The notes under the pieces are model-generated. The model saw only the letters and a list, made by a program, of their open reading frames with translations. It was not told the DNA's origin and did no database searches. Below, piece after piece: positions 27,583-64,000 of a DNA stretch of 64,000 nt (position 1 is the first letter of the stretch; each line of letters starts with the position of its first letter). The stretch is from NCBI RefSeq assembly GCF_964204645.1, contig NC_134025.1, forward strand, positions 17,459,101 through 17,523,100, written 5' to 3'. This DNA is from Tubulanus polymorphus. Taxonomy: Eukaryota; Animalia; Nemertea. The position numbers and the translations under genes were made by a program.

Positions 27583-27600
27583 TTTTTTTAAATTATATTA

Positions 27601-28880
27601 ATGGTAAATAATTTTCCAAAAGCTTTCAATAATAAATCGATTAAATATAATATTCCTGCAATAGATTTTAATAAAAATATCACACATAGAAATGAAGTTT
27701 TAAATTCATTATTTAATTTAGTTATTCATGTTACTGAAAGCAATAATTTTAATGTAAAGATGGAAAATATATTCAATGTTTATGAAATTAATTTTGAAAA
27801 AAAATTAAGTAAAGCAAAATTATGGATGTTAAAATCAAATATGCAATTGTGGCAAAACAAATTAATTTTTGCAGTTTATTGTGCAACAACAGGGTGTGGT
27901 ATAAGTCGGAATAATAATTTAAATGAACCAAATTTACCATTTATATTATCACTCTTTAGATTTCAAAGATACTTTCAAATAAGATTAATATTAAATGAAT
28001 TAGAGTGTCCTTTACCAGGATCTTGATATTTTAAAGAATTAGATAATAATATCAATTTATCAAAGCATTATAAAATATGTAATGAATCAATTATATAGAT
28101 ATAAATAATTCTGATTTTAGATCAAAGATGGGAACAATTACAGGGGGAGATTTATATAAGTAGAGAAAGCTATGGATGCAATGAATAATTCACCATTTCC
28201 AATCGGAGGTTTTGCTCTCCCTTATACTAAAGAATATAGAAAAACAATAAAAAATATTAACTATAATTAAAATAAAACGTTTAAATGGAATGAAATACCA
28301 AAATATTATATTTATATCAAACAACAACTAAATAATGATGGATGGATTAGTTTTGTTTTAGATAATAGTGAAGGTTTTACTAAAGCTGGTATACAAAGAA
28401 TAAATCAATAAATTAGAACTTATTTGATTTGCATACTAGGCGCTCAAGCTGAAACAAGATCCCCAATAATTGGAAATTTAAATACATCATTTGATACACA
28501 GAAACAATTTAAAGTATTATTTGAAGATTCTATTCATAATGATAAAAATAGATCGATTCCAGAAAACATAGTCAGGTACCAAAATTATTTAGAAAAATCT
28601 CATGTAAGATTAATTATTGTATTGGTTCTAATTTAATAATTATTTCGGATGATTTAATATTAAAAATGGGAAAATGTAATTGGTTATAATAATTTGAATA
28701 AAACTGCTACAATAAATAATTCATTTGGATTAAACGATATAAATAAAAAGATTATCACTACTCCAAAACTAATCGAAGGTGAACAAATTAAGAAATCAGA
28801 AAATATAAAAACTGATATTATCCAACATGATATAATTAAAACTAATAATGATAATAAATCACATGAAAATACTAAATTAG
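27601..28880 (+). pseudogene. Conserved viral protein (FAVYCATTGCGIS...ELECPLPG...GFTKAGIQR...ILGAQ)
   Basis: Homolog 61428-62736; stops and frameshifts; deletion junction near 28880. Confidence 0.75.
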
Positions 28881-30021
28881 AGGTGCCAGATATTTAGTAA
28901 GAGAATTAAAATCTTTAGATGGTGAATATTACTATCATTTGAAAGATGATTATTACATTAATATCACTTATAAAAATCAAAATAAAATATTAGCAGAATC
29001 AACTTTGAGTAATTTAGAACCATCTAGAATAAAAAGAATAAGTAATAGTAGTGAAATAGAAAATGTTACCGACACAGAAATAAATCAAACTAAAAGAGTA
29101 TTTAAACAAAGAATTAATGAATTATTTGAAACAATCAATAATAATTTAGAAACAGAAACAACTTCTGAACAGAATATAACTTCCAAAACTAGTAAACTTA
29201 ATTCAAGAGGAGTTCAAACGGTGTTAATTTTACCGAAAGGATTAATAGATGCAACAGATCAACAATTAGAAGATTTAAATATATTTTCTGATAAAGCAAT
29301 TAGAGAAATTATTAGTATAAGAAATAAAGCAGATAAATTTGCGCATGATAAAAGTATAAGAGATTTTAAAATTAGAACTCTAGAAAATGATAGAACTGAT
29401 AAAATTAAAGAAATAGAACAATTACATTTAGATAGAGATAATAAAGTTATTGAAGAAATTGAATTTAAAAAAGAAATGCATATTTAGAAAAAGAAATTGA
29501 TGATTTAAAATATAATATAGAATACAGAAAGAAATTAAATTCTTTAAAAAATCATACGATTATTGTATTAACAGATTAAAAGTTATTTTTAAAGATTTGT
29601 TGATAAAACCAAATTCTGAAATATCATTGAAAGATAGAATAAAATTATTATTTAAATTAGAAGGTATCACAACTCTTTCAATTCTAACAGCTGTTACTAT
29701 GGTATTTACAACAATTGGTTTAGCTTTATCAAATTCATTAAAATCTACACCAAATCCTAAACCACCTGATAAACCACCTCCAAATAATAATTCTATACAA
29801 GATAAAGTGAAAGATGGTTTAAAAAAATTAGCAAAATATCTATGGTAACTATCTAAAAAATCTGCTGCAGCTTTACCCGGAGTTATAGCGTCAATTGTTG
29901 GTTTTGTTTTAAAATCTGCTGGAAACATTATTAGTTTTGCTGCTAAACATATAATTTTATTTTTAATTACAGTTGTAAGTGCAATTATTTTTGGATTAGT
30001 AAACATGATAAAAAATAAATA
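28881..30021 (+). pseudogene. Coiled-coil protein with hydrophobic C-terminus (SLKDRIKLLFKLEG...ALPGVIASIVGFVLKSAG)
   Basis: ORF pieces 28939-29487 and 29597-30021; diverged homolog from 62752. Confidence 0.7.
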
Positions 30022-30960
30022 ATAATGCTATTACAGCAGAAAGATCGCATCATATAATTACTCATAATCCTTCTAATATTGTCCTGATGAAACTTTATAT
30101 ATTAGAATCCCTCGATTGAATCAAAATACTTTTTATGTTCCAAATAGTATTTATTTATCAGCTGATATAAAAGTAACTGGTCATGATAACAATTATGTTG
30201 TCGATAATGTTGGAAGATATTTGATTAAAAAATTAACTATAAAGATTGGACCAGAAACAGTTTTTTCATTAGATGATTATAATTTATTTAAGCATTATAA
30301 AGATTTATGGTTAACTAAAGAAAATAGAAATAATATGATATTTCAAGGCATCCAATCCTTAAATCAAGATAAATTAAGATCAGAAGCTGGTAACGCAATA
30401 GTAGATAATGCTACAGATAATTTGATAAAAAAGATTTATGGAAGTAAATATAAAATTCCATTAGACTTTGAATTGATAAATGATAATGCGCCTTTATATA
30501 AATATGCAATTCAAGAAGATATTATATTGGAAATAACATTTGCCCCTGTTAATGAAATTGTGCTATGAAGTGTAGTTAAAGATATGGGTTATAAATTATC
30601 GAATATGTGTTTAGAATATGATACAGTTACTGATGAAAATATTGCTAACACAATTCAAACTCAATATAATAAAGGAGTTTCATTATCATATGATTATATT
30701 GATAAATCTAAAATTGTAACAATGCAAATGATGAAATAATTGATGAGAATATTAACTTCCCGAGAAGATCTATTAAAGGCGTATTAATATTTTTTACCAT
30801 TGCAACATATTCTAATGGCACAATACAGGTTGATAATTATTATAATGCGGAAATTTCAAAAGTAGAAATAACAATTGAAGGTATAGCAAATAAAATATTT
30901 TGTCAGGGAATGAGAATGATAGATCAATGGCCAGGAATTAGAAAACATTTTATGAATGAA

Positions 30961-32634
30961 ACAAGAGATCCACGGATCTTAATATCTCGGGCGCAGAATG
31001 TTATGTTTGTAATGTATAGGCGCCATCTGATTGATGCATCTTTTTTGGTTTTCCTTGAACACTTCATGCTGATTTCGGTGAACAACATCATCGAAATCTA
31101 ATCAGCAATCATCGCGGCAATACGGGATATCGACAAATTCAAGTTCTTGAATTACTCCTTTGATGTTCACTGAGAACCTTAGTGTCAGTGGTATATCGCT
31201 AACGCCACCCCTGATTCACGAGAGCTGTTTAGTATAGGCAGTATACGGAGCTCCGCGAACCGGCCATTCTCAGGACTGAGTGAAGTTTGATGGCACTAGT
31301 CAGAACCGGAAATTGGAACCTGAATCCACCATGTTCTAGTTCATTTGCAATAAAGATCTCTCGCTTCAAGTTTTTAGTAAGCGATATTTTACTTACTATA
31401 CAACGGCACGCATAATACTTTGAGTATGATATCCTGACAACGTGTTGAATTCGATAAAACCTCACTTTGAACCCTAAAGATCACTAGAAATGTAAAAAAC
31501 TACCAAAAATAAATTTAGCGATGACGCTCGAAGCAGCTAACGGAAATAATGACTGGTGCCGGGTGTCATCACTTTGTTGTTGAGTTCAAGACTCTAAGGT
31601 AAATTTATTGCAGGCAACACTGATAAATATGAAACAATATTATGAAATAAAATTGATTTTAGAAGGACTTAACTCGTAGATTTATAATAAAAAAATATGA
31701 AAAGTACCAGGACTCGAACCAACAATCTTAATTGGGCCGTCAAGTGCTGCCACCAAGTGATACCTGGCAACCAGTCTTCACATCGTCAGCCGTTGCAAAA
31801 TGTTTTTTGATAATTTTCGGACACTTACAGTGATTTCTAGCCTTTGCAGTGAGGTTTTATCATATCAAACGTAGCGGTAGGATAACATATTTCAAGGATT
31901 ACGCGTGACGATATATAGTAAGTAAAATATCGCTCATTGAAAACTTGAAGCGAGAGATTTTCATCGCAAATGAACTAGAGCATGGCGGATGTAGGTTCCA
32001 ATTTCCGGTTCTGACTAGCGCCATCAAACGAGTAATTCAAGAACTTGAATTTGTCGATATCCCGTATACACGAGGTTTGGGCCTATACGATTGTGCGTGC
32101 ATAATCTTCCGTGAAGTAGCGTATCGATTGAATCTTCGGTTATTTGCATAATGAAATAGATATGGGGAGACGGAATCGATACTACGGCTATCAAATTTAA
32201 AATTAACATATACGACTCTCCCATGACTGGGAAATGAGAAACTAGAACCGAGCAGATTAATAGATGAGAAGATTAAAAGACCGGTTTGTCTGCGTCAATC
32301 GAATATGCCCTTATTTGATTGACAGTGGGAGCTCAGCCAACCGCAGGGAGCAGTTATTTTACTTCAATGTAACGTTGTACATCGGCCGTCTAGCCGTTTT
32401 ATGAAACAAAATGCTCCTTAAAATTTCTTTAAAAATGGCCACAAATTCGTCGATTTCTCTTAAATGAACACGATATTCAAAATTCCATTTCCAACAGATT
32501 TTAGCCGCATGATGAAGCTACATTTTGCACATAAACATAGTAGATTGCATGACTTCGTGTCAAAGTTATAACCTCATTTGTTAGCAAAAATTCGATTTTT
32601 GGACCCATTACAACATCTCGGGCTTCACCCGAGT
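30961..32634 (-). mobile_element. Helentron-type insertion in the capsid gene
   Basis: ACAAG + hairpin AGATCC-ac-GGATCT + CTCGGGCG; far end CTCGGGCTTCACCCGAGTAAAA. Confidence 0.7.
31124..32064. mobile_element. Nested fold-back element with long TIRs
   Basis: TA|CGGGATATCGACAAATTCAAG...CTTGAATTTGTCGATATCCCG|TA; 31287-31465 inverted to 31848-32028. Confidence 0.8.
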
Positions 32635-32907
32635 AAAAAAATATACTACCTGAAGATTGTAATATTTATCAGATTATCATACCGGCAATACATATGTATT
32701 ATGGTTAGATTTTAGAACAACTGAAGATAACTTATTACATGGTTCTGGGAAGAAATTACAAAATACAAAAGATGGGATACAATTATTCATGAAAGAGAAA
32801 ACAGGAGGTTTAAATTACAAAATGCACATTTATCTTATATCTGACGCGCAATTAAATATCATAAATTCTCAATTACACAGTTTTAATAAAAATATTATAA
32901 TAAATAA

Positions 32908-33690
32908 TGGAAGGAGGAATATGTGAAATACAATTCCAAGTGAAATGATATTATATATATTATATAATACCTTATGAATATAGTAAGTATTTTGGAGAAT
33001 ACTTTAATCAATTCAAATATAGAATAAATAAAATAGAAAAGAATATTGAAACTAAAAAAGAAGATAATATTGAATCTAAAATAGAAGATACTAATAAAAT
33101 TGAATCTAAAATAGAAGATAATAATGTAAATATAGATGTTATACCTTCTACATAGAATAATGATAATTATAATACAAAGATTGAACCTGATATCAAAACC
33201 AAAAAGACAATGAAAAATATAGTGACGTATGTAAGAAATATATATCATATAAAAATTGGGCATCACATAAGAAATCAAAGAAACATGTTGAAAAAGAAAA
33301 GAATAATAATGATAATAATATATCTGATAATAATATCATAGATAATCTAATAAATAATGTTAATACAATTGAAACTAATGATACCATAGATTATATAACA
33401 GGTAATTTTAATACAATTGAAACTAATGATAACCATATAACAGATAATGAAATAATTGAGGATTCTAAAAAACATTGTAACATTTGTAATTTAGATATTT
33501 CTCAAAGTAATTTTTCTAAACATAAAAAATCTCAGGCGCATATAGAAGATGAAAGGGATTTAGAAGAAAATGAAAAGAAATTAGAAGAAATAGAAAGAAA
33601 GAAAACGTGTCAATATTGTAATAAAAAATTGAGCCTGTTGATGAAAATATTCATTATAAATCAAAATTACATCTAATTAATGTTTATATG
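32908..33690 (+). pseudogene. Viral low-complexity protein with C2H2-type zinc fingers
   Basis: KHCNICNLDISQSNFSKHKKSQAH (~33470-33542), KTCQYCNKK; short internal tandem repeats. Confidence 0.55.
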
Positions 33691-34089
33691 TTTTTTACGT
33701 CGTCCCGTTCCTTTTGTCATGAAATGACTAACTTTAAGACTTTTCTTCAGACTATAGCGATTTATTTAGCGGAGAGACGTGTACAGTCAGGCTTGCATAG
33801 ATGAACTGATTTTACAGGATATTTGTTACGGCTTTTATACAAAATCAGGCTGGGAACTAATTATGATTACAATCTGTTGAGAATGTTACAAACTGTCGAA
33901 ATGTTACCATAAAAAGGACAAAATATACAAACGAGAGAACAGGCACAGTCTTAAACTAGTTAAAAACAAAAATTATACAAGTGTTAACGATTATGATAAG
34001 CGAGTTCACACGGGATCTCGGTGGCAACCAGGTCCACGCGCATTATAGCCATCTGGCTTTGATAAACTGTTGTAACGGTTACAACAACA

Positions 34090-35883
<1,794 letters not shown>

Positions 35884-35919
35884 TTTAATATGAAATTTTT
35901 TATTAAAATTGATTTTATA

Positions 35920-36261
35920 TTATTCAAAATCTATATCATAGTGCCCTTTTTCATTCTTACCTTTGTATATGAAATAGAAATCACCTGAACATATTTCTTC
36001 AATATCTTCACTAGATAATCTATGAAATCTATCTGGTAAATATGTTCTGAATTTATATTTATTTCCTTTTAATCCTTCATATTCTAAGTGGATAACTAAT
36101 TTATCTCCATATTTATTAGTAACTTTTTCAATATTAGTAATCAAATATTTCTCATGAATTGTTAATTCATTTAATTTTTCAAATTTATAATCTACAGATT
36201 TTACATTTGTAGTATCTTTAATTCTATTTAAGAATTCACTGTGTATTTGTTTACTCTCCAT
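35920..36261 (-). CDS. MESKQ small protein, intact right inverted-repeat copy (113 aa)
   Basis: Open ORF; two other near-full copies in the window. Confidence 0.8.
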   Translation of the reverse strand: MESKQIHSEFLNRIKDTTNVKSVDYKFEKLNELTIHEKYLITNIEKVTNKYGDKLVIHLEYEGLKGNKYKFRTYLPDRFHRLSSEDIEEICSGDFYFIYKGKNEKGHYDIDFE

Positions 36262-36334
36262 TTTAATAACATATTTTTTATCAAAATTGATTTTAGAAGT
36301 TATTCATTTATATATGTTATTCATTTATATGTTA

Positions 36335-36337
<3 letters not shown>

Positions 36338-36421
<84 letters not shown>
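36338..36421. repeat. (TA)n microsatellite in the right inverted repeat
   Basis: Only ~(TA)4 at the equivalent left position 19083-19090. Confidence 0.97.
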
Positions 36422-36423
<2 letters not shown>

Positions 36424-36432
36424 AATTATTCG

Positions 36433-36539
36433 AGTAATTGGGAATGTGTTGGTTCAGGTCAAAGGTTGAGTCGAGTGAGTAGAAAAATAAATTCGAGCGT
36501 GCAAGAATTTATTTTTCTACTAACACATTCCCAATTACT
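36433..36539. repeat. Terminal fold-back hairpin of viral copy 1
   Basis: AGTAATTGGGAATGTGTT...AGTAGAAAAATAAATTC-gagcgtgcaa-GAATTTATTTTTCTACT-AACACATTCCCAATTACT; outer arm lacks 27 nt. Confidence 0.9.
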
Positions 36540-48550: not shown

Positions 48551-48672
48551 AGTAATAGGGAATATGGGGGTTCAAGCCAAAGGTCGAAAGGTCGAAAAAT
48601 AAATTCTCGCACACTCGAATTTATTTTTCGACCTTTCAACCTTTAACCTGAACCCCCATATTCCCTATTACT
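48551..48672. repeat. Terminal fold-back hairpin of viral copy 2
   Basis: 56-nt arms 48551-48606 and 48617-48672 with 4 mismatches; loop TCGCACACTC. Confidence 0.95.
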
Positions 48673-48746
48673 CCCTATAGAATATTCATATGTATGAATA
48701 TGAATAACTTCTAAAATCAATATTAATAAAAAAATTTGATATTAAA

Positions 48747-50690
48747 ATGGAAGCAAATAAGACGTACTACTGTTCAACATGTAATATCAATATAGATAAA
48801 TCCGAAAAATCAAGACACAATAAAACTAAATCCCACTTAGAAAATAGATTAAACTTAGAATATCAAGATGAAAAGATGAAAATAAATTAGAGGAATTGAC
48901 GAATGAAAAAGAAACATACAAATGTGATACATGTAATCAATCATTCAGTGAAAAAAGATATTATGAACAACATTTAAAATCTAAAAGTCATATTAGAAAT
49001 ATTAATAATGATACTTTAGGTGAAGAATATTTTGATAAAGATAATGATAAGAAACAGAAGACAAATAAAAGAATAAACAATAAAATAAACAATAAAAGGC
49101 CATACATGGAAGATGTAAGAAATTATGTTAATTCATTAGATAATAAAAAAGAAATAGAAATAACCGAGGCATTCAAAAGTGATATTGGACCAGCCGCAAT
49201 TGAGTTTAAAGGTAAAACATTAGAAGAAAATAAAAAACATTTAGAAAATATGAAAAGTATAATAAGAATACTTACAGATGTTGAATACCCTAAAATTAGT
49301 ATATCTTCTAAAGTTAAATTTTTAAAATCTGAAGATAAACCAATATATAATATAAATTCTCATTCACAACATATTATTTCAAAACATCATATAGATGATA
49401 AATTGAATAAATGTTATAATGAAATAAAGAGTAAAATAGAAGAGAAATATTTTGAAGGATCTGGTTAAATATTTGATGAAATAATATTTATGACTTTACA
49501 TGTTTATAACACAAAATATAATAAGTTAACTAAATCAAAACCAATAGATGAAAATAATTTATCATATTATAAAGATGATAATATAAATGGATCAAGTTAT
49601 ATCAAATTACCATTTAAAACTAATGCTGTTATAAATGTACAAAATGAAGATGATAAATGTTTTCTATGGACAATAATTAGTTGCTTACATCCAGTTGAAG
49701 ATTATAAACAACATAGTTTTAGATTAACACATTATATTCATACAGAAAAGTTAATGGTAACTCAGGATGATAAATATAATTATGTAGTACATTATAGAAT
49801 GTTGAAGTTTTATTTGAATCAAGGAATGATTCTAAAAAAAGGACATAGATATATTTCGTTCAGTCAATCTAAATGGTTAGAAAAATATATAGATTTTAAC
49901 ACCAAACAGAGAACTAAAGCTAAAACTGATTTCGAGAAAGATTTCTTCAAGTTAATGAATAATGCATTCTATGGTAAGACTTGTGAAAATATTAGAAATA
50001 GAAATGATATTGAGTTAGTTAGCAATGGTAAAAGAATTAGACATTTACAAACATATCCTAAATTCATTGGTAACAGAATATTTGATGAAAATTTAGCTGC
50101 AGTTAAAATGAGAAGAACATCAATGAAATTTAATAAACCAATCTATGTTGGCGCTTCAGTTTTAGAATTATCAAAATTACTAATGCATGAATTCTATTAT
50201 AACGTATTACAACCTCATTTTGGAGAAAAGCACATAGAAATCTTATATTTTGATACTGACAGTTACATATTAAAGATAATAACATAATAGATGATTTAAA
50301 AACATTAAAACATCTTTTTGATTTCAGTAATTATCCAAAAGATCACGAATTGTATAGCAATGAAAATAAAAAGGTGCCCGGTAAATTCAAAGATGAATTA
50401 GGAGGTGAAGAAATGATAGAGTTCATTGGAATTCGATGTATAGTGAACATGAAGCAAAAAAGTTAAAAGGTATAACAAAAAGTGTAGTAGAAAAGAATAT
50501 TCATTTTAAAGATTACATCAATTGTATATTCAATGAAGAAGTTAGGAAACATAAGATGAAATGTTTAAGATCTGAAGATCACGAGATGTTTATTGAAGAG
50601 ATAGAGAAGATAAGTCTAAACCCATTTGACGATAAAAGATATATTTTAGATGATGGAATTCATAGTCGCTTATGGTTGCAATTAAGATGA
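48747..50690 (+). pseudogene. polB: Protein-primed family B DNA polymerase, internally deleted
   Basis: Two CxxC..H..H fingers, EGSG, NEDDKCFLW, then KLMNNAFYGK, KPIYVG, YFDTDS, KKVPGKFKDE, FDDKRY; exonuclease and motif A absent. Confidence 0.92.
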
Positions 50691-50792
50691 ATACTTAAAA
50701 TTTAAAAGGGAGGAAACAAAAGAGAACGAGATTATGAAATGGATTCTAACATGTCGGCTTTAATTCAATTTTGAGAAAAATATGTATAATAA

Positions 50793-51146
50793 ATGGAGAG
50801 TAAACAAGCACACAGTGAGAACAACAAATCATTCCTAGATAGAATTAAATATACTACAAATGTAAAATCTGTAGATAATAAATTTAAGAAGTTAACAGAA
50901 TTAACAATTCATAAGAAATATTTAATTACAAATATTGATACAGTTACTAACAAATATGGAGATAAATCAGTTATTCACTTAGAATATGAAGGGTTAAAAG
51001 GAAATAAATATAAATTCGGAACATATTTACCCGATAGATTTCATAGATTATCAAGTGAAGATCTAGAAGAAATATGTTCTGGTGATTTCTATTTCATATT
51101 TAAAGGTAAGAATGAAAAAGGGCACCATGAAATACATTTCGAATAA
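50793..51146 (+). CDS. MESKQ small protein (117 aa)
   Basis: Intact ORF homologous to 35920-36261. Confidence 0.8.
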   Translation: MESKQAHSENNKSFLDRIKYTTNVKSVDNKFKKLTELTIHKKYLITNIDTVTNKYGDKSVIHLEYEGLKGNKYKFGTYLPDRFHRLSSEDLEEICSGDFYFIFKGKNEKGHHEIHFE

Positions 51147-51550
51147 AAAAATATGTAATATAAATGCAAGATAAATTAAAAGAATATAGAATATATGTTG
51201 ATTCTAGAAAACTGTTAAATTCTAAATCACATAATTTACTAGTACAATTAGATAGAGAATTTAAGAATTGCGTAGATTTAAAATTAGTAAATGTAAGTTT
51301 ATGTAATTCTTATTATAATATAACGGATAAAACTATTGAAGTTAATACTTTTTTAATTCATATTAGAAATATAAATAAATGGTTTCATCTAATTTTAAAA
51401 CCAGGATTATATAATTTAGAAACATTAGCTCAAGAAATTAATCGAAGAGCACGGTTGAAATTTAGAAGAGTTGATAAATTGGTAATTAGATTTATAAAAA
51501 GTGATAGCACAAATAAAATTAAAATAAAGGTATATGATGGAAGTCAAAAT

Positions 51551-54500
51551 GCATTGTTGGAAATGAAATGTTGGAAAAACATGGCCGACGTAGCCAGTTC
51601 ACGTCCTAACGACCTCTGGGAATAATATAGCTTTCAACCTTCATGGCTGTGTAAAATCTCGGATATACGCTATACTGATCATCAAAATTTCAGTTCGAAG
51701 GCTGGATAGATCACCGTGGTCAATTAGGGTATGTCGAATTAACTGATTAAGTTGAAGTAGACAGCACAGTGATTATAAATGGATGTGTAATCAGCAGTTA
51801 CAAAGTTGTCTTTTTTGTTGAAATTAAGTTTCTCTTAGTAACTCCGGATATTGAAATGCTATAAGAGAAATCTGGGATGAGATTAAGAGGAATTGTTTAA
51901 AATTTCGCAAATCGTAAATTGTGAATCGTCTCGTATTTCTACCTGCAATTCCAAGGTCACTATAATGTTTCTACGCGTATACGGTGGTGTCAAATCTATC
52001 TGAATTAAACTGTACTCACGCGTGTTACTCTACAATCTCTACAGCGTAATCCGACAATAATCTGTGATCTTAACAACCATGGCCGATCAAAATAAAACAG
52101 AGCAAGATAAACCACACCTTGCAAATAAATCAACTGATAGCGAGGTTTTTATGGATTCTGGAAGTATTGATGCTACGGACAAAACTGATGAACCTGCCCC
52201 GTCTGCTACCCTATCTGCTGACAAATCTGCTAAACCCCCGCGAAAGAAAAAAACGCAAACAGGCTCCTGTGCCGATACCTCAATTAACAATACGAATGTC
52301 GATGCTATTTTAAACACGGACAGTGTCAGCAATTCTGTTCACACTGATCATCCAAATAGTCCCTCTTCCTCTGCTATTGAAGCTCTAATTATGATTCAAA
52401 AATCCATGGTAACAATCGAAAGTCTTGAAAAATTTAAGCTCTCCCTGGAGGATACTATGGACCGAAAATTAGAATTGCATTACCAACGCGTAGAAAAAAC
52501 ACTAGAACGATATGAATGCCGCCTTTACGATCTCGAACGGGAAAATGATAATCTAAAGAAAGAACTAAAAGATCTTAATTTGTAAGATGACGAGCAAAAA
52601 CTTGAGTTAAAATGTCTGAAACAGGACCTAAATATCTATCAAGCGGAAAACGGTTGAAAATGAACAATATTCCCGCCGTAATAATATTCGTGTTTTCGGA
52701 ATAAAGGAAAATGCCGGAGAAGACTGTGGGCAAATCGTTATCGATAATCTAAAATCTAACATGCCAGAAGAAATCTTTGACAACCTTACGCTGAACGATA
52801 TCGATGTTTGTCACAGGATAAAGCCAAAAGTACCCAGCGTTGACGAGGATGGAGAGTACCTCCCGAATCCAATAATTGTTCGGTTCAAAGACCACCATTT
52901 TCGTAACAGGATATTTTTCAATAAAAAACACTTGAAAGGGAAAAAAATATTCGTGAAAGAACATTTGTCGCCTGAAATTGTCACTTTTATGGCTACTGTT
53001 AGAAAAAAGAGGGATTTCCTCAAAATGTGGACGATCAATGGCAAAATTTATGCTCTTAACAAAGACGGTAAAAAACTGCCAATTAAACTTTATGAATTCT
53101 AATATAAAAACCATTTAGTAATTTTCAAATTTACTGTACTGTGCTTATTTCTATTTCAACTCCTGTTTACTTATTAATGTAAAGTCATGTGTGTAATTCT
53201 ATAATTCTCTCTGCTCCAGTGACGATGACTATCATTGCGCGCGGAGTACAGAATTTATTATAGGTTTACCTCAGCATGCTCGCTTCTTTTCTTACCTTCA
53301 TATATATACTTGTCACACGTCGCGGACTTTGTCATTATTTATGCACTGAGTTCATGTAACGTTTTATCAATGGGTCATTATAATTCCTTCTGCTTGCTAA
53401 TATGATGGAATTTAACAGCATACAGCGTGACTGTTTGTATTATAACAGTTACGACTTAGTAAAAGAATTCTCTGACTCCAGTTATGGCCTTTTTCATGTA
53501 AACGTCGTGAGTCTGAACAAAAATTTTGATAATTTACTTTTAACTTTAGATTCTACTGCATGTAACTTTGACGTCATAGGCGTCACAGAGACTTGGGCGA
53601 GAATAAGCATGGATAATAGATCTTTATATCCAATTCCAGGATATAATTCAATTTTCAAATGCAGAGATCACTCCAGAGGTGGAGGAATAGCCTTTTATGT
53701 AAAAAATTCTATAAATTACAAAATTAGGACTGATCTCGATATACCTATTATCAATTCAATTGAATATATGTTCATCGAAATTAATCTTAGGAACTTCCCG
53801 GAAAAAATTCTTATTGGTCTATTTTACAGACCTCCTCAACTCAAGGTCAGTGACGTTATTAGTGATTTTTTGAAAATATTTGATAAGATATCTTGTCATT
53901 CTAGAGTTTTCCTTATGGAAAATTTCAATATCAACATACTTAATGAGGATCGCGACCTTCATACGACAACTTTTGTTGATACCTTGAGTTGCAATTCCTT
54001 TGCTCCTTTAATTAACAAACCTACACGCATTACTGATAAATCGGAATCTCTTCTAGATATAATTTTCACAAATTGTAATGAAGAGTATTATATCAAATCG
54101 GGCATAGAATTCATATAATGAATGATATGTCGGATCATCTACCTGTATTTTCAATTTTAAATACTAAGTCTAATTCTAAAAAAAAACTCCACATCATGTA
54201 AACTATAGACAAGTTAATGAACGCAACATGCGGATTTTCAAAAGGTATTTAATGGCCGAAAAATGGAATGATGTATATAATAGCACCAATACTGAACTGG
54301 CGTACAATACATTTATCACCTTATTTACTAAATACTATGACAACTCATCCCCAATAACCAAAAGGAAATGGAATCGATTAAAAGATAAGCTAAACCCTTG
54401 GATGACAAGAGGTCTATCAATTTCACTGAAACATAAGGAGAAGTTCTATACAGAGTATCTTAAGAAGAGGTCAGCTGAATGAAAATCAGTGTTTAATAAA

Positions 54501-56543
54501 TACAGAAACTGTTTTCACAAATGTATACGCGTGGCAAAAAAAGATTTCTACATGCAAAAGTTTGAAACTATAGGGACTGATTCCAAGCAGACCTGGGGAT
54601 TAATCAATTCTATATTACATAAAAGAAAAGCGTCAGATTTTCCTTAAAAGTTCAGACATAATGATCAATTCATTACTGACCCCCTCGATATAGCTAATAA
54701 TTTCAAAGACTTTTTTATAAATATCGGTCCAAAACTAGCTGATAAAATGCCAGATACAAACAAAGATTTCAAGAGTTATCTAAAAAACAGAGTTGAAGAC
54801 ACAATTTTCCTTGCTCCAGTGACTAAATTAGAAATAGAAAATATTGTTAAACTTTTTAAATCAAAGAATAGTTCTGGAGTTGATAATATTAGTCAGAAAT
54901 TATTAAAGGAGGTCATCCATCTTATCTCTGATCCCCTAGTATACATCTTTAATCTTAGTTTGGTATCTGGCGTTTTTCCTAGTGCTCTCAAAATTGCTCA
55001 GGTTTGTCCAATTTATAAAACCGGGGATAAGGCAAGTTTCACAAATTATCGCCCAATCTCAATCCTACCATGCCTCTCTACGATTTTAGAAAAAATCATG
55101 TATTGCCGTGTCATTGAGTTTCTTGAATCTCATAATGTAATTTCAGACTCCCAGTTTGGGTTTAGGAAAAAACATTCTACTTCCTATGCCCTAACAAAAA
55201 TAATCGATAACTTAATTGATAAATTGGATTGTGGAGAGACTATTTTAGGTATTTTTTTTAGATTTATCTAAAGCTTTGATACCATATATCATGCAATACT
55301 ATTAAACAAACTTGAACACTATGGTATCAGAGGTTTAGCTAATATCTGGTTTAAAAACTATCTTTGTAACTGACTTCAGTGTGTAAAATATGGAGATAAA
55401 ACATCCAATCGAATGAAAATAATATGTGGAGTCCCGCAAGGATCGATCTTGGGTCCTCTTCTCTTTATTTTGTACATTAACGATTGCCGCAATGCGTCAG
55501 CCATTTTACAGACTATAATGATCGCGGATGATACTAATATCTTTGCTTCCCATAAAGAGTAGAGAATTTTGGAGAAAACTGTCAATTTTGAACTTGCAAA
55601 CTTGGACGTCTGGTTTATGTCAAATAAACGTTCATTAAATCTTGACAAAACACATTTCATGGTATTTAGTAGAGCTAAGAAAAAAAGGACTTCCGAATAT
55701 ATATCGGTGAAGTACCTTTACAAAAAGTAAGTAACACCAAATTTGTAGGAGTCCAAATTGATGATAATTTAAATTGGAAAGCCCATATACAAAATATTGC
55801 GAAGAAAGTGGCACAAGGTATTGGTATCATCCGACGCTTATCACATTATGTTCCACGATCCGTTCTTCTAAAATTGTACTATTCTCTTATTCATCCTTAC
55901 ATTCATTATTGTAACATGACTTGGGAAAATAATAACACTACTAATCTTAACTGTCTTGTGGTATTACAAAAGAAAGCGATTAGAGCGATTAATAGAAGCG
56001 GCTACTTAGTGCACACGTCACCTTTATCAAAAGAGAACAAACTTTTGAAATTAGAGGATATCAACAAATTACAAATTTGCCAGTTCATGTACTTATATAA
56101 TAAAAATGATGTCCCTAAAGCCTTCGATGATTTCTTTTTACATAATTCGCAAATTCACAACCACAACACTCGAAATAGTACTGGTATCAATTTCGTAATC
56201 CCATATTCAAAAACCAACCTTCGTTACAATTCATTAAGATCGAAAGGTCCAAGACTTTGGAACACTTTGAATGCTAAGTTAAAACTATCTAAATATGTCT
56301 GTTCTTTTAAAAGAAATTTAAAGAAGTCCATCATAGACAATTACTAACTCACGTGAACATTGTTTAAATTCAAGTATTGCGCCCGTCTGAAAGTATGTAT
56401 GTGTGTGTATGCATGAAGCGCGTGTGAATATGCGTGTTTTTTTCCTCTTTTTTCCTTATTTTGTTTTCCTTTTAGGGTGCCTGATACTAAAAGCTTTGCT
56501 TTTTTCGGGTTGCCCTGCTGTTATTTTACATCAGCATATATCG

Positions 56544-56630
<87 letters not shown>

Positions 56631-56718
56631 GTATCAGGCACCCTAAAAGGAAAACAAAATAAGGAAAAGAGAGAAAAAAAAACACGCATATTCACACATA
56701 TGATATGATGATATGATA
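51551..56718 (+). mobile_element. Near full-length degraded CR1-group LINE (Crack/Daphne/L2-like)
   Basis: ORF1 52079-53102 (coiled coil, EQYSRRNNIRVFG, DIDVCHRI, PIIVRF); ORF2 53402-56347 (GVTETW, RGGG, YRPP, SDHLP, YRPISILP, QFGFRK, GVPQGSILGP, ADDT, HNHNTRN); TATGA-type tail; absent from copy 1. Confidence 0.9.
56549..56626. repeat. (TA)n microsatellite between inverted repeats
   Basis: Direct reading; 56423-56489 is inverted to 56629-56696. Confidence 0.95.
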
Positions 56719-57057
56719 CATTTATGGAAAAAAAAACCATTAGCAAAATTGCTAGGAATTGCACCAGATACTGTGTTACAGGAAACATAGACGGTAATTC
56801 AAATATAATGCCTTTTACACATTTTTATATCTATTGCAATTTAATTGATCCTAGAAAAACATTTGAAGCAACTAAAGATACAATTTGTAATTCTAGTATA
56901 TTAAATTTTTTACCATTAAAAAATGTTAAAAAATTTGGAAGTCAAATAAATCATAATTTAGCTGAATGTGATTTTAAACCTTGTATTTCACATTTCAATA
57001 ATTTTAAATTAGAAATCATAAAGGATATTTAATTGTTTTAAATAATTTTATATAAAT

Positions 57058-57417
57058 ATGAATATAACAGTTGGACCAAGTATATGTTTTGGATTTGATT
57101 TTAAACGTGAGAAAGAAATGAAATTAAACATTAATGATGTAATAACACGTGTTAAAAATATTGCAAATATTGTATTTACTAATGAACCAACATTTGAGTG
57201 TGAAAAAACAATAAATAAAGAAACTTTTAATGTAGAAAAGATTACCGATTTAATTAGAGAGTCTTTGAGATTTTATGAATTAGATGATGATTTCATTATT
57301 GATGATATTAAAAAAATAATAACTGAAATATATAAAAATGAAACTAATAATGAAATAAATGTTGAAATAATTATAAATAAGATAACTAAATATTTTGAAG
57401 ATGGTAATTTGTTTTGA
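57058..57417 (+). CDS. Viral hypothetical protein (119 aa)
   Basis: Intact ORF with a homolog in copy 1. Confidence 0.7.
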   Translation: MNITVGPSICFGFDFKREKEMKLNINDVITRVKNIANIVFTNEPTFECEKTINKETFNVEKITDLIRESLRFYELDDDFIIDDIKKIITEIYKNETNNEINVEIIINKITKYFEDGNLF

Positions 57418-57424
57418 TAAATAA

Positions 57425-57688
57425 ATGAGTGATAATAAGTGGATAATAACTGGATTATATAATGGAGCATTACTATCAGTTGGAACTGTTGGTTATACAA
57501 TGGTAATAAAAAAAGTACTTAAAATGGGAAGTGTTATTGTTGATAGATTTGATATCAATGATATTTTAAGATTAACATTAGCAGTTACTTTATCTAATTT
57601 AACTATTGATTATTTGGAAAAACAAAAATATATTCCTCTATATAAACGGGTAATTTTTTTACCAAATAAATGGCATCTGCAATTATAA
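57425..57688 (+). CDS. Small hydrophobic viral protein
   Basis: ORF with two hydrophobic segments; homolog in copy 1; the true stop may be earlier. Confidence 0.65.
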   Translation: MSDNKWIITGLYNGALLSVGTVGYTMVIKKVLKMGSVIVDRFDINDILRLTLAVTLSNLTIDYLEKQKYIPLYKRVIFLPNKWHLQL

Positions 57689-60600
57689 CTATTATAGGAT
57701 CGGCAATTGTTAACGCTTTAGCATTTACTGGTGGGGGATATTTATTTAAGCATATTGATAAAAATAGTTCATTAGGAGAACAAAGAAGACATAACTTAGC
57801 GTTAGAGAAATACAATAAAGCAGCAGAAGAATACAGAGAAAAGAGACAAAATTATATGGATTATATTAATAATTAATTATATAACCAAAATATTTTACAT
57901 AGAGATTTTCAATCAGTCGATGATGCAATGAGTTTATATAACGCAGTAACAAATAAAGAACAAGAGCCCCAAGGGGCACAATGGCCAGCCTGTCAGATTT
58001 GCTTTTTATAAATGATGTAATCTGTGGGTTATATTTATCAATATACACTCCCTGCTCAATATCATTTACATAGTAAAATCGTGTGTTAACACAGACAGCA
58101 GGAACGAATGTAATATAGAAATACTAAGTTATTGTATTGTTCAACGCCCCCTGGTGGCCATAAAAAAACCAATGAGCTTGAAACTCACCTCGATCATAGA
58201 ACATGTCATGAGCTACAACTTTCCAATTGATTATAGTAGCAAAATATGCTTAAGTATCAATTATGATGTGGAAAAACTTTTTTTCCACCTACGAATGAGT
58301 ACTGATGACCCCAAGATGGCTGCCAAGTGCGTCATAATTGCCTGGTCAAAAATACCCTCTCGGATATAAAAGATCCCTTTCCAAAGAATACCCATTACAA
58401 ATTGCAATGAAACATGGCGCACCATTAGAAAGCTACAGTACTCTGAATTCAGGCCAAAATTGACATTTTTGGGAACAAAAAAGGTCACAGTACGGCCATC
58501 TTGAGTCCGATCGACTCAATTTTTCTTATGCCGATGAACCCTCGGGGGATACAAATATATACGAATGATCAAGGTTATTGACAAAAGTGTCTTCAAAATT
58601 TCAACAATGGCTGCCAGTCGGCCATCTTGAATCTGACAGGGCCAGTTTTTGGCCTGAAGATTTGTCTAGGGTAGATACACGTATAAAACATATATCAAGA
58701 CATTACCTTGAAGCGTCTTCAAAACTTTGGAACTCTCACGAACTATCTAGATGGTTATCTTTCGACCTCAATAGCTTCGAGACCCATCTCAAAACAACTT
58801 TGTTCCATGCAGCATACCATTAACTCTCGGAAAGCGAATTGTATTTAACATTTTTTGGCAGAATAAAATTTGATTGAATTTGCAATTCGGGCACATGGCT
58901 AATTAGCATATCAAGGTCATACACCCGATTTGGTAAAACCTTTTTTTCGCGAACCTTGCGCAATTGTCAAGGATGAATTTTCTGTAGAGCAAATAAAAAT
59001 TCCTCCCAAACACCAAATCAACTAAAGATTTCATAGAAATCGATCTTGAAATACAATTTTAAATCTTAAAATAAAACCCGGAAGTAAAACAGTAGACGAT
59101 ACCGCGGATTCACGTGAACACCTGATTTCTGTAAACGAAATGTTGGTTGTGACAAAATTGTTCAGACGGTTTTAGGTGGTAATAAGTATGGAAACGTAAC
59201 GACCATGGTCGACTTATGCGATGAAATCAGGCCTATGTGATATCCAAATTTTGACTTCTTTATTCTCCAGACCTACCTGATATAGAAATAAAAAATTTTG
59301 GTGGTACGAAAGTGCAATCACAGCGCCAACGGGGACAGAGCCGTGTCAGAGATCGGCGGAGTGAAAATTGAGATGGACGAACACGAAGAAGTAGGCTATT
59401 GCGTAGTTAGTTACCTAATCGTTGGTGGTAAGCTTTTTATAATCGGATGGGCTTATACCAACGTTAGGGATGACAAGGACCAAAACACGGTTGAAAAAAG
59501 TAACACTTCAAAAATATACTTTCTATTCACTTCAGTCCACAATTAATGGCTTAATTCATAAACTAACACAGGTACCAATTTTTATTTTTGCTGGTTTTCC
59601 AACTTATATTTCAAATCTTTGTGTTTTCCATAGTAAATAATGAAATAATAAATTCTGGTAAAAGAAAAATGTGAATAAGTGTTGATTTCTTATTTTTTTC
59701 AATTTCGTCGTTTCGCTTTGTTAGTTTGTGCTGTTGTCCTCGCCTCAGTCCACAGGTGCCAGCACCTCCAGTAATTTTCAAAATGGCAGCTGTTGACCCG
59801 ACGGAAATTTACTCTCACTTTACGGCCGATTTGCACATGGATTAAGATCGTCAGGTGAGGTGTTATAGGTATCAGACAAACTACGAATCTGTTGTGCGTC
59901 GATTACGACAAAAATTAGACGGATATCTTAAGAGACAATGAAATGCCAGGCAAATTACTCGTCAGTCAAATTGGCTGACGAAGATTTCATACAAAAATGA
60001 CGTTCCCATTCCTGACTGTGTTTTGTGAAAATATCCGATCGTGAAACTAAACCACAGACAGGTTACTGACTAGCTATTGCGCTACTTGAATCACGAAAAC
60101 TCCTGGCGCGGCCCCGACGCTTTTCGTTGATTAAGTAATACAAATATCATGCAATGGGTTTTCACAATCTACCGCTGGTATTTACCGGATTTCAATATCA
60201 CTCCTAAATTCAAAGAAACCTCGAAATATCGAACCGGAACACTTCCGGTAGATCTCCGCGGCTGCCCAACCGGGAAACTTATTTGTTTCAATAGATATTG
60301 ATAGGATCCATCATCTTCACCCGTCAAGGGATTCGAACCCACTAAGCTAAAGCCATGCCAGAATCGGGTAGGGCCAATCACAGCGCTTGTAACAAACCAC
60401 ATTAGGCTTCTGTGGAATTTCCCAGTAAATGGGCCAATCAGCGAACACGTAGCGAACGCGGAAGTATTGTCGCGTGTTGATACATGACGTCATGCGCAAA
60501 AGCGCCAGTAATGAAATCGCGATAATTCACGTGAACAGCTGCTGATATTTTCAGATAAACCAATCACAGGGAAGACACAACTTCCTGATTGGCTGATAAA

Positions 60601-60962
60601 AATTGAAATTTTCCCGATTTAACTTTCGTGAAAAATGCAGAAAACATTTTTATGAGACCCTATTTCAAAATTCTGCTCGCTACGATTCCGAGAATGGATT
60701 ACGCTTAAATACGTGATTTGTTCGAATATGCCCTCACTTGGCAAGCAAAAGAGCCTTTTTCTGTGGAAACCATGTCATTTAAATTCGCTCCATTTGTATA
60801 GTAATAGGCTCAGCCTACGGCTGGCCTAAAAATTACATCTACATAAACCTACAATATCCGATTATTATACCCCAAGTAATGAACAGAAGAAATATGAAAT
60901 AATTTGGATTTTAGGTGGAACAGTTATTGTTATATTTGTGGCATATAAATTTACTAATTAGT
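57670..60962 (+). pseudogene. Viral membrane protein (MASAIITIIGSAIVNALAF...) split by a Helentron
   Basis: 57670-57959 plus 60828-60962 match the copy 1 gene. Confidence 0.75.
57960..60827 (-). mobile_element. Composite Helentron-type insertion
   Basis: ACAAGA + hairpin GCCCC-aa-GGGGC + GGCCAGCC; far end GGCTGGCCTAAAA; inserted in GAA|AAATTACATC with no TSD; contains other repeats. Confidence 0.75.
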
Positions 60963-60981
60963 AATTTTCTTTTCTAAATAA

Positions 60982-61411
60982 ATGAGCGATAAAGTTGATA
61001 ATAATGATATTATTCCTCATGATATAAATAAAACTAAATTAAAATTATATTTGGAAAAACAAATATTAGAATTTGAAAATGATTTAAAAGTAAAAAAGAA
61101 AAAATATTTAAAAAGCAAAATTATATATTATTATTAGTGGTTCAGTTACAATAAGTTCTGTAATAACATTTCTAGCAATATTCAGTCCATTAACTCCTTT
61201 AGCTATATCAATTGGTGTGTTAGGATTAAGTTCAAGTGTTTCAACCGGAATAAGTTCAATATTAAATATAAAAAGTAATAAAGAAAAAATAAAATCCAAT
61301 ATAAAAGAAATTATTAAATTAAAAAATACACTAGATTATATAATAAGTTTAAATGGTAATATAACAATTCAAGAGCAGGATGAATTATTAAATGAATTGA
61401 TTAATTATTAA
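60982..61411 (+). pseudogene. Viral two-TM/coiled-coil protein
   Basis: Homolog of 26032-27582. Confidence 0.7.
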
Positions 61412-61427
61412 TTTTTTTATTATATAA

Positions 61428-62736
61428 ATGGCAATTAGTTTTCCAAAAGCTTTCCAATATAATAAATCAATTAAATATAATATTCCAGCAATAGATTTAA
61501 TAAAGATATTTCATATAGAAATGAAGTTTTAGATTCATTAATTAATTTAGATATTTATGTTACTGAAACTAATAATTTCAACGTTAAGGTGGAAAATATA
61601 TTCAATATTTACGTAATTAATTTTAAAAATTTAAATGAGGCAAACAATGGTTATTAAAATCTAATATGAAGTATTGGCAGAACCAATTAAATTTTGCAGT
61701 TTATTGTGCAACAACAGCGTGTGGTATAAGTTGGAATGATCATTTAAATAAACCAAGTTTACCATTAATATTATCACTTTTTAGATTTCATACATATTTT
61801 CAAATAAAATTAATATTAAATGAATTAGAGTGCCCTTTACCAGGTTCAAAATATTTTAATGAACTGAATAATAATATTAATTTATAAAAGTTTTATAGAA
61901 TACGTAATGAATTCAATATTAATTCAAATAATGATTTTACAGCAAAAATTGGTACAATGGGTGGATTAGGAATATTATATACTAAAGAATTTGGAAAAAT
62001 AATGACAAATACAGACATAAGAACACTAAAGTGGAATGAATTACCATAATATTATAATAATATACAACAACAAAATAATAATGGATGGATTAATTTTATT
62101 TTAGAAAATAGTGAAGGTTTTACTAAAGCTGGAATACAGAGAACTTATTTGATATGTATTTTAGGTGCGCAAGTTGAAAAAAGGTCACCAATGGTTTGAA
62201 ATGATAATACTTCATTTGATACACAAAAACAATTCAAAGTATTATTTGAAGATTCAATTCATAATGATAAAAAAGATCGATTCCAGAAAATATAGTCAGG
62301 TACCAAAATTATTTAGATAAATCTCATGTAAGATTAAATTATTGTATAGGACCTAATTTATTAATTATTTCTGATGATTTAATATTAAAAATGGGAAATA
62401 TAATTGGTTATGATAATTTAATTAAAACTGCAACAATAAATAATTCATTGGGATTAAATGATATAAATAAAAAGATTATTACTGCTCCAAAATTAATGGA
62501 AGGTGACAAAATTAAAAAAAAAACATATTCAATCAACAGAAACTAAAACTAAGAATATTAAATTGGATAATGATTCTAAAATAAAAGATTACAATACATC
62601 AGAAAATATAAAAACTGATATTATTCAACATGAAATAATTAAAAGTAATAATGATAATAAATCACACGAAAATACTAAATTAGCTATAACATGTATAGGA
62701 ATTGTAATAGGAGGAATACTATATTTCAAATTTTAA
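61428..62736 (+). pseudogene. Conserved viral protein (WQNQLNFAVYCATTACGIS) with C-terminal TM helix
   Basis: Homolog of 27601-28880; ends LAITCIGIVIGGILYFKF. Confidence 0.75.
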
Positions 62737-62751
62737 TTTTTTATTATATAA

Positions 62752-64000
62752 ATGGAAGAAGATATTCCAATGGATACTTTTGGTGACGCCCCTGGTATAA
62801 GTGATGAACCACAACCTGATTTTAATGAAACTAATATTGATAATGGTGATGAAACAGCATATAATAATGCTGAAGATGATTCTAGAGGGCCTATATTATA
62901 TGATTATGATGAATTTAAAGATGATACTGAAACAAGTGAAAAATTAATAGATTATTTAAGAACCCGCGATGAGATAATAATTAAAACTAGACCAGAAAGA
63001 AAAGATTCAATTAATAGATTAGAAAGAACAGAAAACCCTGAATTGAAAAAAGAATTATTATACTTAAAACATAGTGTAACAAATACAGTTATTGAAGAAT
63101 TATTACCAAAAAATGTAACAAGATAACATTGAACCAGAAGATATTTCAGAACAAATCTTCACATTTCATGAATAATTTAGAATTTAAAAATGATGCATGG
63201 TATTATAATGTTGAATCAAATAACAAAACTGTATCAATTCAATTATCTTAAATGGGACAAGAAGATCTGTACCATCCTGAAATGCGAGCAGGATCTTCAA
63301 TTGAACATTCAAAAGGTGGTACAATATTTCTCAGAATTATATGGAATGCACTCGATAGAATAGATGAAGAAGAACCAAATGTTGGTATTGATATTAACAA
63401 ATATCCACCATTTAAAAATCCAAATTTAAATCCTACTTATGTTGATCCAGAAATGGAAGAGTATGGGGATCTATTAGATAAATTAAGATCTTCAACACCA
63501 GAAACATCGAGAAGAGATATTCAACAAATTGATAATGGTTCAAGTCAATTACAATTAGTAAAACATTTTGATAGCATGTTAGATACAGTTCATTCATTTG
63601 AATAGTATTTTTGATACACCCGGTACTGAAACTGGAAAAAATCGAATGCAATCTTTGTTAAAAAGGCATTACTTGATTTAAATGAAGAACAATTAAAAAT
63701 ATTTCCTGAACAAGCACGTAGAGAAATTAAAGGTATGCAAGAATCAGCTGGTTAAATTGCCAATATTAAGATGAGATTTTCTAAAATAACCATGTTAGAA
63801 AAAGAATTAAAACAATTAGAATTAAATAGAGATCTTCAATTAATCGAGGAAGCTGATTATGAAAGCAGAAAGTTAGCTTTAGATAAAGAAATTGATGATT
63901 TAAAATATAACAAAGAATTACAGCAAAAAGAATGAGATATATTATTGAAATCATATGATCTCAATCATATCAAAAAATTAAAAGTTATTTTTAAAGATTT
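62752..64000 (+). pseudogene. Acidic/coiled-coil viral protein, N-terminal part
   Basis: MEEDIPMDTFG...; 63700-64000 aligns with 29280-29600. Confidence 0.7.

Follow-up and report, generated by a model that had tools for sequence, protein, structure and literature searches.

What transcribes the genes of the polinton-like viruses (PLVs) that insert into animal genomes? The expression and spread of animal Polintons are open questions, and no virions have been seen (10.64898/2026.06.19.733378). We analyzed a 64,000-nucleotide stretch of the genome of the nemertean Tubulanus polymorphus (NC_134025.1, positions 17,459,101 to 17,523,100 of the forward strand), hereafter the window. It holds two AT-rich islands, copy A and copy B (element GC 18-29%, host background ~37%), that are decayed copies of one PLV family. 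A preliminary description had noted that many of their genes start within the word TAAATG, had likened this to a poxvirus late promoter, and had proposed two temporal promoter classes read by the polymerase of a helper virus. Our data show that this is a real, clade-wide, poxvirus-late-like promoter on an animal PLV, for which the helper is hypothetical.

Start positions in the window were set from element open reading frames (ORFs) and homology to intact relatives, with the motif not used. Among the 20 starts so defined, 12 carry TAAATG, 4 carry TAAAATG, and 4 are near misses (19533, 27601, 32907, and 57058); a T is located 12 bases before the ATG in 18 of them. The 12 TAAATG starts comprise the 11 positions given in the preliminary description, every one of which proved exact, and a duplicated copy at 25317. 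By comparison, 50 of 648 non-start ATGs in the same viral segments follow TAA (Fisher p 1e-8 versus starts), and dropping the duplicates leaves TAAATG at 11 of 18 starts (p 3e-8). Enrichment over shuffled sequence was also found: a motif built from the relatives had 19 matches in the window, whereas shuffles gave 4.8 +/- 2.1 and 0 of 100 reached 19. Host and transposon starts numbered four, none with TAAATG, and are too few to serve as a control.

The finer features that had been described hold as well. The TAA followed by a T-tract upstream of the motif is present at 7 of the 11 sites by pattern and at an eighth (60979) by eye. The upstream stop is distinct from TAAATG, given that the preceding ORF ends 4-99 nt before the motif or past it (8 of 11 sites, those with a listed end). 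Introns are absent, as the relatives' ORFs are continuous and the genes of the window are broken by stop codons, frameshifts, and inserted host sequence. The starts assigned to a second class (19167, 36261, 35883, and 48747) are ATGs in TAAAATG behind an A-rich box, with one G in the box at 36261 and one extra A at 48747. However, most of the 11 sites pair up as orthologues between the two related copies, which leaves ~8 independent promoters in the window, and the four second-class sites reduce to a single terminal-repeat promoter, counted twice, and the orthologous PolB promoters of the two copies. The stronger test therefore lies in the relatives.

A metagenome scan yielded 22 loci, of which 17 (L001-L017) are clade members or near kin; the distant and decayed L018-L022 were excluded from every clade count. 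The relatives are partial contigs throughout. Applying a blind first-ATG rule to the closed ORFs of L001-L017, we found TAAATG at 57 of 75, whereas non-gene ORFs had it at 85 of 1576 first ATGs (p 4e-50). The motif occurred at 31/35 starts in L001-L005, at 9/11 in L006-L008 (36-44% GC), and at 17/21 in L009-L014 and L017. Among intact clade relatives, leaving out the sister lineage L015/L016, it stands at 52 of 61 starts, and it maps on one capsid clade (quick tree; Shimodaira-Hasegawa-like approximate likelihood ratio test, 95), outside which L015 falls.

The signal extends beyond the six letters. In 53 distinct upstream regions, counted from the T of TAAAT, there is a T at -9 in 50 and at -10 in 41, an A at -15 in 41, a variable spacer, and an A at -3 in 40 and at -1 in 45; a G directly follows the ATG in 38. 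Non-start TAAAT words have a T at -9 in 328 of 813 cases, compared with 13 of 13 in the divergent promoters listed (two of L012 were excluded as L011 duplicates). Fifteen starts face a real divergent gene, across spacers of 19, 24, 24, 28, 28, 30, 64, and 72 nt. The motif is conserved and fixed in position, neither AT content nor stop-start overlap accounts for it, and it behaves as a promoter would.

It is also specific to this clade among related elements. Scanning IMG/VR with PolB, we obtained 29 further polinton-type loci, and TAAATG starts are rare in 28 of these 29, unlike in our clade. The pooled control (n = 28), which excludes L128 (from a bacterial bin) and L147, has TAAATG at 14 of 286 starts (21/293 with L147) and an A at -3 in 166 of 286; low-GC controls (GC 0.32 or less) have it at 7 of 86, and giant-virus bins at 9 of 69. 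A motif scan of IMG/VR returned 105 loci with one match; of the 80 taken with flanks, none with at least five ORFs exceeded 5/11 TAAATG, their other starts having it at 40/429, and none was a helper-like contig.

The single outlier, L147 (IMG/VR, 9034 nt), has TAAATG at 7/7 starts, a 34-nt bidirectional promoter, and a different ATPase, whose relatives show TAAATG at 1/10, 0/8, and 1/11. Its rve integrase and chromodomain are fused with a domain that we take to be protease-like. Placement of L147 as sister to the clade is not rejected by the approximately unbiased test (p 0.405), which thus gives no evidence for an independent gain of the motif, and L147 is possibly a second lineage on the same machinery. 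Controls L129, L131, L135, L148, and others carry TATAAAA or ATATATA words within ~10 nt of the ATG. Such words are too close for ordinary RNA polymerase II (Pol II), and these polintons may rely on other helpers.

The agreement with the published vaccinia late promoter had been part of the original comparison, and it is borne out. One description has TAAAT(G) over the start codon and, at the 10th base upstream, a T that is conserved more strongly than the others (PMC11980589); another has a T-rich core, a gap of 5-7 bp, and TAAAT(G/A) (PMC5294985). The elements studied here share the TAAAT+G over the start codon, the T-rich tract, the conserved T ~10 bases upstream and, in a subset, an A/T-rich box 15-19 bases upstream. 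They differ from vaccinia in that the genome is small and polinton-like, no RNA polymerase was found in it, and the motif precedes nearly all genes, including PolB.

The proposal of two temporal classes survives in part. The A-rich box is real and fixed in position: in the relatives, it precedes TAAATG in nine cases, at -19 (5), -20 (2), and -17 (2). However, it is not confined to replication genes, since it stands before penton-like, zinc-finger-like, ATPase, and membrane-protein genes (before the zinc-finger-like gene at the same place in L002, L003, and L005). Vaccinia intermediate promoters are described as a TAAA initiator with an A/T-rich box 15-19 bases upstream and no T at -10 (PMC11980589), whereas the A-rich starts here mostly retain the upstream T of the late type. 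The box therefore seems to be added to one shared core and not to define a distinct class for replication genes, and dual intermediate/late promoters would fit better. Although it overlaps the stop codon before the penton-like gene, a role as poly(A) signal of the upstream gene is not favored, because the box is likewise found where there is no upstream gene, within the terminal repeat and at a divergent promoter, and because its distance from the ATG is fixed.

We postulate, with a probability of roughly 55%, that the TAAATG signal is a post-replicative promoter and that, in the cytoplasm, a co-infecting poxvirus-type helper supplies the RNA polymerase that reads it. In poxvirus late initiation, slippage on three template Ts produces a poly(A) leader (PMC6831550). 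By analogy, transcription would start within the AAA of TAAAT, and the pox-type polymerase would slip and add a 5' poly(A) leader, as in vaccinia. This leader would replace the unfavorable T at -3, which, in an mRNA that has no templated leader, would never be read by the ribosome. At PolB and certain other genes, the A-rich box (-19 to -12) would allow firing at the intermediate stage as well. The element would replicate with its own PolB, which together with the terminal hairpins would serve replication; the capsid, ATPase, and several membrane proteins would build the particle, and the element would pack its own capsid. The provirus, inserted by the integrase, would stay silent until a helper infects the cell. 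The copies in the window are themselves defective.

Several points weigh against this proposal. The helper is still hypothetical, and both the transcript start and the poly(A) leader are ones that we infer from sequence. Poxviruses were known only from vertebrates and arthropods as of 2019 (PMC6831550). Yeast cytoplasmic plasmids also have TAAA initiators and poly(A) leaders, so the motif does not single out Poxviridae. The position of the -9/-10 T agrees with vaccinia to within one base, as judged from a review's wording. The sister lineage L015/L016 has TAAATG at 0/8 starts, and control polintons share compact divergent spacers, down to 33 nt. Nor did the proteins scanned include one of clear poxvirus origin. 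In favor of the proposal, 32 window ORFs and sets of 31, 23, and 10 relative or control proteins yielded no RNA polymerase, TBP, TFIIB, or late transcription factor; all relatives being partial contigs, however, a divergent transcription factor encoded by the element could be missed. Two sub-threshold matches were set aside: an "RNA polymerase A''" match in P0216, which spans an intein and lies far below cut-off, and a Pox_Rap94 match in L016 (E 0.019), below cut-off and treated as noise.

Coding-sequence tests for cytoplasmic expression likewise fail to separate the clade from the controls. AATAAA occurs 131 times against 132.8 expected in clade coding DNA (L001, L003, L004, and L005) and 91 against 87.5 and 358 against 352.6 in controls; being undepleted in both, it says nothing. 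T5NT is depleted in the clade (12 against 33.6 expected), but we do not take this as evidence for avoidance of poxvirus terminators, since controls are depleted too (21 against 37.7, 64 against 96.3), as are long A-runs in coding DNA. The sister lineage L015/L016 has the same gene set as the clade, and several of its starts lie a few bases after a TATA-like word; it possibly uses a different helper.

Other explanations of the motif have to be set against a pox-type helper. One would be a feature of translation or packing, that is, stop-start coupling, trans-splicing, or AT bias in a compact genome. Although the elements are of 18-29% GC with tightly packed genes, and one L001 junction is an exact stop-start, this is largely refuted and very improbable. 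The TAA is the upstream gene's stop in just 1 of the 51 cases with a neighbor, the motif is kept in divergent pairs and in relatives of 36-44% GC, and the AT-matched controls stand at 50/648 and 7/86. Nor is there an AG acceptor before the ATG: at each of positions -3 to -1 before TAAAT, 0 or 1 of the 53 upstream regions has a G. Another explanation, which we consider unlikely, keeps transcription in the cytoplasm and replaces the poxvirus by an asfarvirus-, egovirus-, or Megaviricetes-type nucleocytovirus or by a polymerase-bearing linear plasmid resembling pGKL2 that reads a TAAA initiator. Yeast virus-like elements indeed have TAAAAT initiators, slippage leaders, and a pox-related polymerase (PMC6831550), and basal egoviruses occur in marine sediment (10.1101/2024.03.23.586382), while the giant-virus bins exceed the control polintons in TAAATG (9/69 versus 14/286). 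The late promoters of African swine fever virus combine a T/A-rich upstream motif with a TATA initiator (PMC7458399), which recalls the many TATA-TAAATG starts found here; however, its late genes have short 5' untranslated regions behind that TATA (PMC7458399). What tells more generally against a helper of this kind is that near-universal overlap of TAAAT with the start, together with a single conserved upstream T, is what has been published for poxvirus late promoters (PMC11980589), that the gene table of salmon gill poxvirus marks TAAATG throughout, and that, among the 80 IMG/VR loci taken with flanks, none of at least five ORFs rose above 5/11.

It is slightly less probable again that the element is autonomous and nuclear, with host Pol II and an unrecognized element factor acting on a private promoter to make nearly leaderless mRNAs. 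The element is integrated in the nuclear genome, its relatives have an rve-chromodomain integrase, several conserved genes lack a known function, and the coding-sequence signals are the same in clade and controls, all of which would suit such a life. However, the scanned proteins yielded no TBP, TFIIB, or other transcription factor, and a TATA-like word directly before the ATG would put the Pol II start downstream of that ATG. Moreover, eukaryotic start contexts prefer a purine at -3, and the T at -3 in 53 of 61 clade starts is the opposite of the purine preference seen in the controls.

If a poxvirus-type helper is assumed, there is a precedent: PLVs were discovered in the occlusion bodies of entomopoxviruses, and it was suggested that they are the first hyperparasites of poxviruses (Barth et al. 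2024, PMC11296320). Like the elements described here, they are small integrating or episomal double-stranded DNA viruses with a double jelly-roll capsid and an A32 ATPase (the latter seen here in the relatives). They are physically associated with insect poxviruses and have an adenovirus-type protease and no rve integrase (PMC11296320), whereas our case has promoter evidence, a nemertean host, and rve in the relatives, with no protease or helper found. The available main text of that paper does not contain the words "promoter," "motif," or "transcription," and the available text of the adintovirus paper (PMC8502044) and of two 2026 preprints on PLV diversity lacks "promoter." In open-licence PubMed Central and bioRxiv, we found no published promoter evidence or lophotrochozoan host for poxvirus-associated PLVs, and no paper combining "polinton" and "TAAATG" was among the matches listed.

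That Sputnik, mavirus, and the PLV Gezel-14T share promoters with their helpers is established (10.1101/2022.07.28.501842). The proposed use of the helper's motif, and host-genome integration in the case of mavirus, are common to those viruses and ours. Their helpers, however, are Imitervirales in protists and their motifs are different (10.1101/2022.07.28.501842), and the capsid here is ~10% identical to those of Sputnik and mavirus, a likeness by fold only. With animal Maverick-Polintons and adintoviruses, the family shares terminal inverted repeats, a protein-primed-type PolB, a double jelly-roll capsid, insertion in an animal genome and, in the relatives, rve and an A32 ATPase (PMC8502044, 10.64898/2026.06.19.733378); it departs from Maverick-Polintons in that its capsid has no profile similarity to the PF21738-type capsid of a control polinton, no protease was found, and there are several membrane proteins. 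The yeast plasmids pGKL1 and pGKL2 are likewise linear and AT-rich, bear terminal repeats, and use TAAA-type initiators (PMC6831550), and their protein-primed PolB links them to polintons (PMC11071308). They differ in having no capsid and no integration, and the pair encodes a pox-related polymerase with early-type upstream elements (PMC6831550).

The features of the window are collected in Table 1.

Table 1. Features of the two PLV copies and of the surrounding host DNA in the window
Feature	Position	Strand	Remark
Host arginase exons	15815, 18249, 39915		copy A lies between exons 2 and 3, i.e., in intron 2
Third element-end remnant	5251..5430	-	hairpin half, terminal promoter with TAAATG, start of small terminal gene
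Copy A, decayed provirus between terminal inverted repeats	19010..36539	+	from repeat, end, and gene map
A-rich-box promoter ending TAAAATG, left terminal repeat, copy A	19134..19169	+
Penton-like (minor capsid) gene, copy A	19533..20289	+	broken; homologous to L001 gene
T-tract and TAAATG, orf3, copy A	20291..20308	+	start 20306
TAAATG, 75-amino-acid (aa) gene, copy A	20650..20655	+	no T-tract; copy B orthologue has one
T-tract and TAAATG, 139-aa membrane-protein gene, copy A	20881..20898	+
T-tract and TAAATG, SLATT-like gene, copy A	26017..26034	+	duplicate at 25305-25322
Double jelly-roll major capsid gene, copy A	30024..32881	+	start and promoter deleted; host insertion ~30960-32660
Zinc-finger-like gene after capsid gene, copy A	32886..33676	+	broken; A-rich box, near-miss start 32907
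PolB orthologue, copy A	~34100-35883	-	orthologue of copy B gene
PolB A-rich-box promoter, copy A	35881..35916	-
A-rich-box terminal-repeat promoter, right end, copy A	36259..36294	-	same promoter as, and not independent of, 19134
Right-end palindrome, copy A	36433..36539	.	inner arm longer than outer arm
Copy B, another decayed provirus of this family	48551..64000	+	runs off the window; contains the interval of the preliminary description
Terminal palindrome, copy B, near-perfect, 122 nt	48551..48672	.	starts AGT, ends ACT
PolB A-rich-box promoter, copy B	48713..48749	+	directly inside terminal repeat
PolB gene, protein-primed type, copy B	48747..50690	+	broken, internally deleted
Decayed A-rich box and TAAATG, MESKQ gene, copy B	50770..50795	+
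Small terminal gene (MESKQ), copy B	50793..51146	+	also present in both copy A terminal repeats
A-rich box and TAAATG, penton-like gene, copy B	51143..51166	+	box overlaps upstream stop
Penton-like orthologue, copy B	51164-57032		split by a long interspersed nuclear element (LINE; endonuclease and reverse transcriptase matches)
T-tract and near-miss start (TAAATATG), orf3, copy B	57043..57060	+
T-tract and TAAATG, 75-aa gene, copy B	57410..57427	+	tract within upstream coding sequence
T-tract and TAAATG, 139-aa membrane-protein gene, copy B	57655..57672	+
Host repeat insertion splitting copy B 139-aa gene	57985..60825	.	not an intron
T-tract and TAAATG, SLATT-like gene, copy B	60967..60984	+
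T-tract and TAAATG, 442-aa gene, copy B	61413..61430	+	C-terminal hydrophobic segment
T-tract and TAAATG, 485-aa membrane-protein gene, copy B	62737..62754	+

One exon in the window is 100% identical to arginase-1-like of T. polymorphus, and the position of copy A between two exons of this gene makes its integration in an animal genome real. The host gene (15815-43231) has a second intron of 21.6 kb, which holds copy A, and a 3' half with very short introns. The terminal inverted repeats of copy A (19083-19364/36064-36345) are 97% identical over 282 nt, its left end being truncated with the outer hairpin arm gone, and copies A and B are 82-92% identical in DNA across shared blocks. Polinton ends have the form AG..CT, and complete ends of the present element read AGT...ACT. 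The copy B palindrome folds at -49.9 kcal/mol (z -16; 0 of 200 shuffles equally stable), and the stretch 36395-36535 of copy A, which includes part of a TA run, folds at z -10.6. Each of the terminal palindromes (those of copies A and B and one at ~5330-5430) has a short asymmetric loop; they could form hairpins, which may have a role in replication or integration.

Both copies are disrupted by stops, frameshifts, deletions, and host insertions, including a Harbinger-like transposase and a LINE. The halves of the copy B 139-aa gene lie at 57670-57984 and 60830-60955 (tblastn), and the repeats of the insertion between them also occur in host DNA at 1800-2600 and 16000-16900. A duplication of some 400 nt of viral DNA (25159-25560 and 25871-26270, spacing 712 nt) surrounds the end of the Harbinger-like insertion (21073-25770). 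Between the two copies, the end modules have been rearranged: the terminal promoter drives MESKQ at both ends of copy A (19167, 36261) and PolB in copy B (48747), where MESKQ comes next (50793). Long TA microsatellites are expanded in PolB (35146-35305) and the terminal repeat (36340-36421) of copy A, and another lies at the LINE end in copy B (56545-56626).

The window is colinear with L001 across nine genes. Relatives L001-L005 carry an rve-chromodomain integrase and an A32 ATPase, neither of which tblastn found in the window (copy B runs past its end), and relatives also have a deoxynucleoside kinase; 5 of 17 L001 ORFs have a hydrophobic segment. The PolB core fragment is 90% identical to a 1363-aa metagenomic protein and 46-58% identical to named arthropod and oyster proteins. 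Its homologues number 2277 at E 1e-20 or better, some with PF03175, and a clade PolB, P0216, matches DNA_pol_B_2 at 5e-17. In the PolB tree, the window and L006 fall in one clade of 15 rows (support 100/99), and the nearest named relatives outside it come from a spider, a beetle, a leafhopper, a mayfly, and an oyster. P0216 contains an intein and a LAGLIDADG domain, and the PolB P0211 is fused to the beginning of a deoxynucleoside kinase domain.

The capsid fragment has 27 relatives of 370-420 aa with up to 76% identity (those of 415 aa at 75%), and its family comprises 2417 representatives at E 0.001 or better; the relatives are unnamed. A model of the relative P0001 (predicted local distance difference test score, pLDDT, 65.5) matched iridovirus and PBCV-1 capsids in Foldseek (E 1e-12) and virophage capsids as well. 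A sequence search of the PDB returned nothing for the capsid or the 442-aa protein, and a profile comparison of the capsid with the PF21738-type capsid of control locus L129, which we take to be a Group 1 Maverick-Polinton, showed no similarity. The family thus shows terminal inverted repeats, a protein-primed family B polymerase, and (by the relative's model) a double jelly-roll capsid, as in polintons and PLVs. It does not show the group-typical capsid or adenovirus-like cysteine protease of Group 1 Maverick-Polintons, and no protease was found among 31 scanned proteins from the partial contigs of relatives.

The penton label is our assumption by analogy with polinton pentons rather than from a fold. 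The MESKQ protein is possibly a single-strand DNA-binding protein (SSB), a weak lead suggested by an Atlas score of 0.86 to a cluster with 44% Phi29 SSB; single-sequence folding gave no usable model (pLDDT 38). A SLATT-like gene with two membrane segments is seen at L010:2348-2956, at L001:2541-2975, and at 26032 and 60982 in the window, the SLATT matches of the L001 orthologue being below cut-off. The L010 protein begins with proline-rich PSAP/PPxP-like words, which we take to recall ESCRT late domains. No clade members were found in IMG/VR or in GTDB, the latter giving one distant ATPase only. The clade proteins P0027, P0206, and P0214 are filed under Bartonella and Sulfurimonas assemblies, likely through contamination from animal or environmental DNA, and hint at further hosts.

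We tentatively propose, at a little under even odds, that this widespread clade of animal PLVs consists of virophages of poxvirus-type viruses, that the nemertean proviruses mark an undiscovered pox-like virus of marine lophotrochozoans, and that promoter swaps between sister lineages (motif absent in L015/L016, present in L147) record changes of helper. The 30-base promoter lets helper dependence be tested directly, without culturing either virus. If the proposal is true, virophage biology would extend to a third animal lineage, and pox-like viruses would be predicted outside vertebrates and arthropods. A sequence marker would then sort thousands of endogenous Polintons by the machinery on which they rely, and virophages of poxvirus-type viruses would be recognizable by their late promoters from sequence alone.

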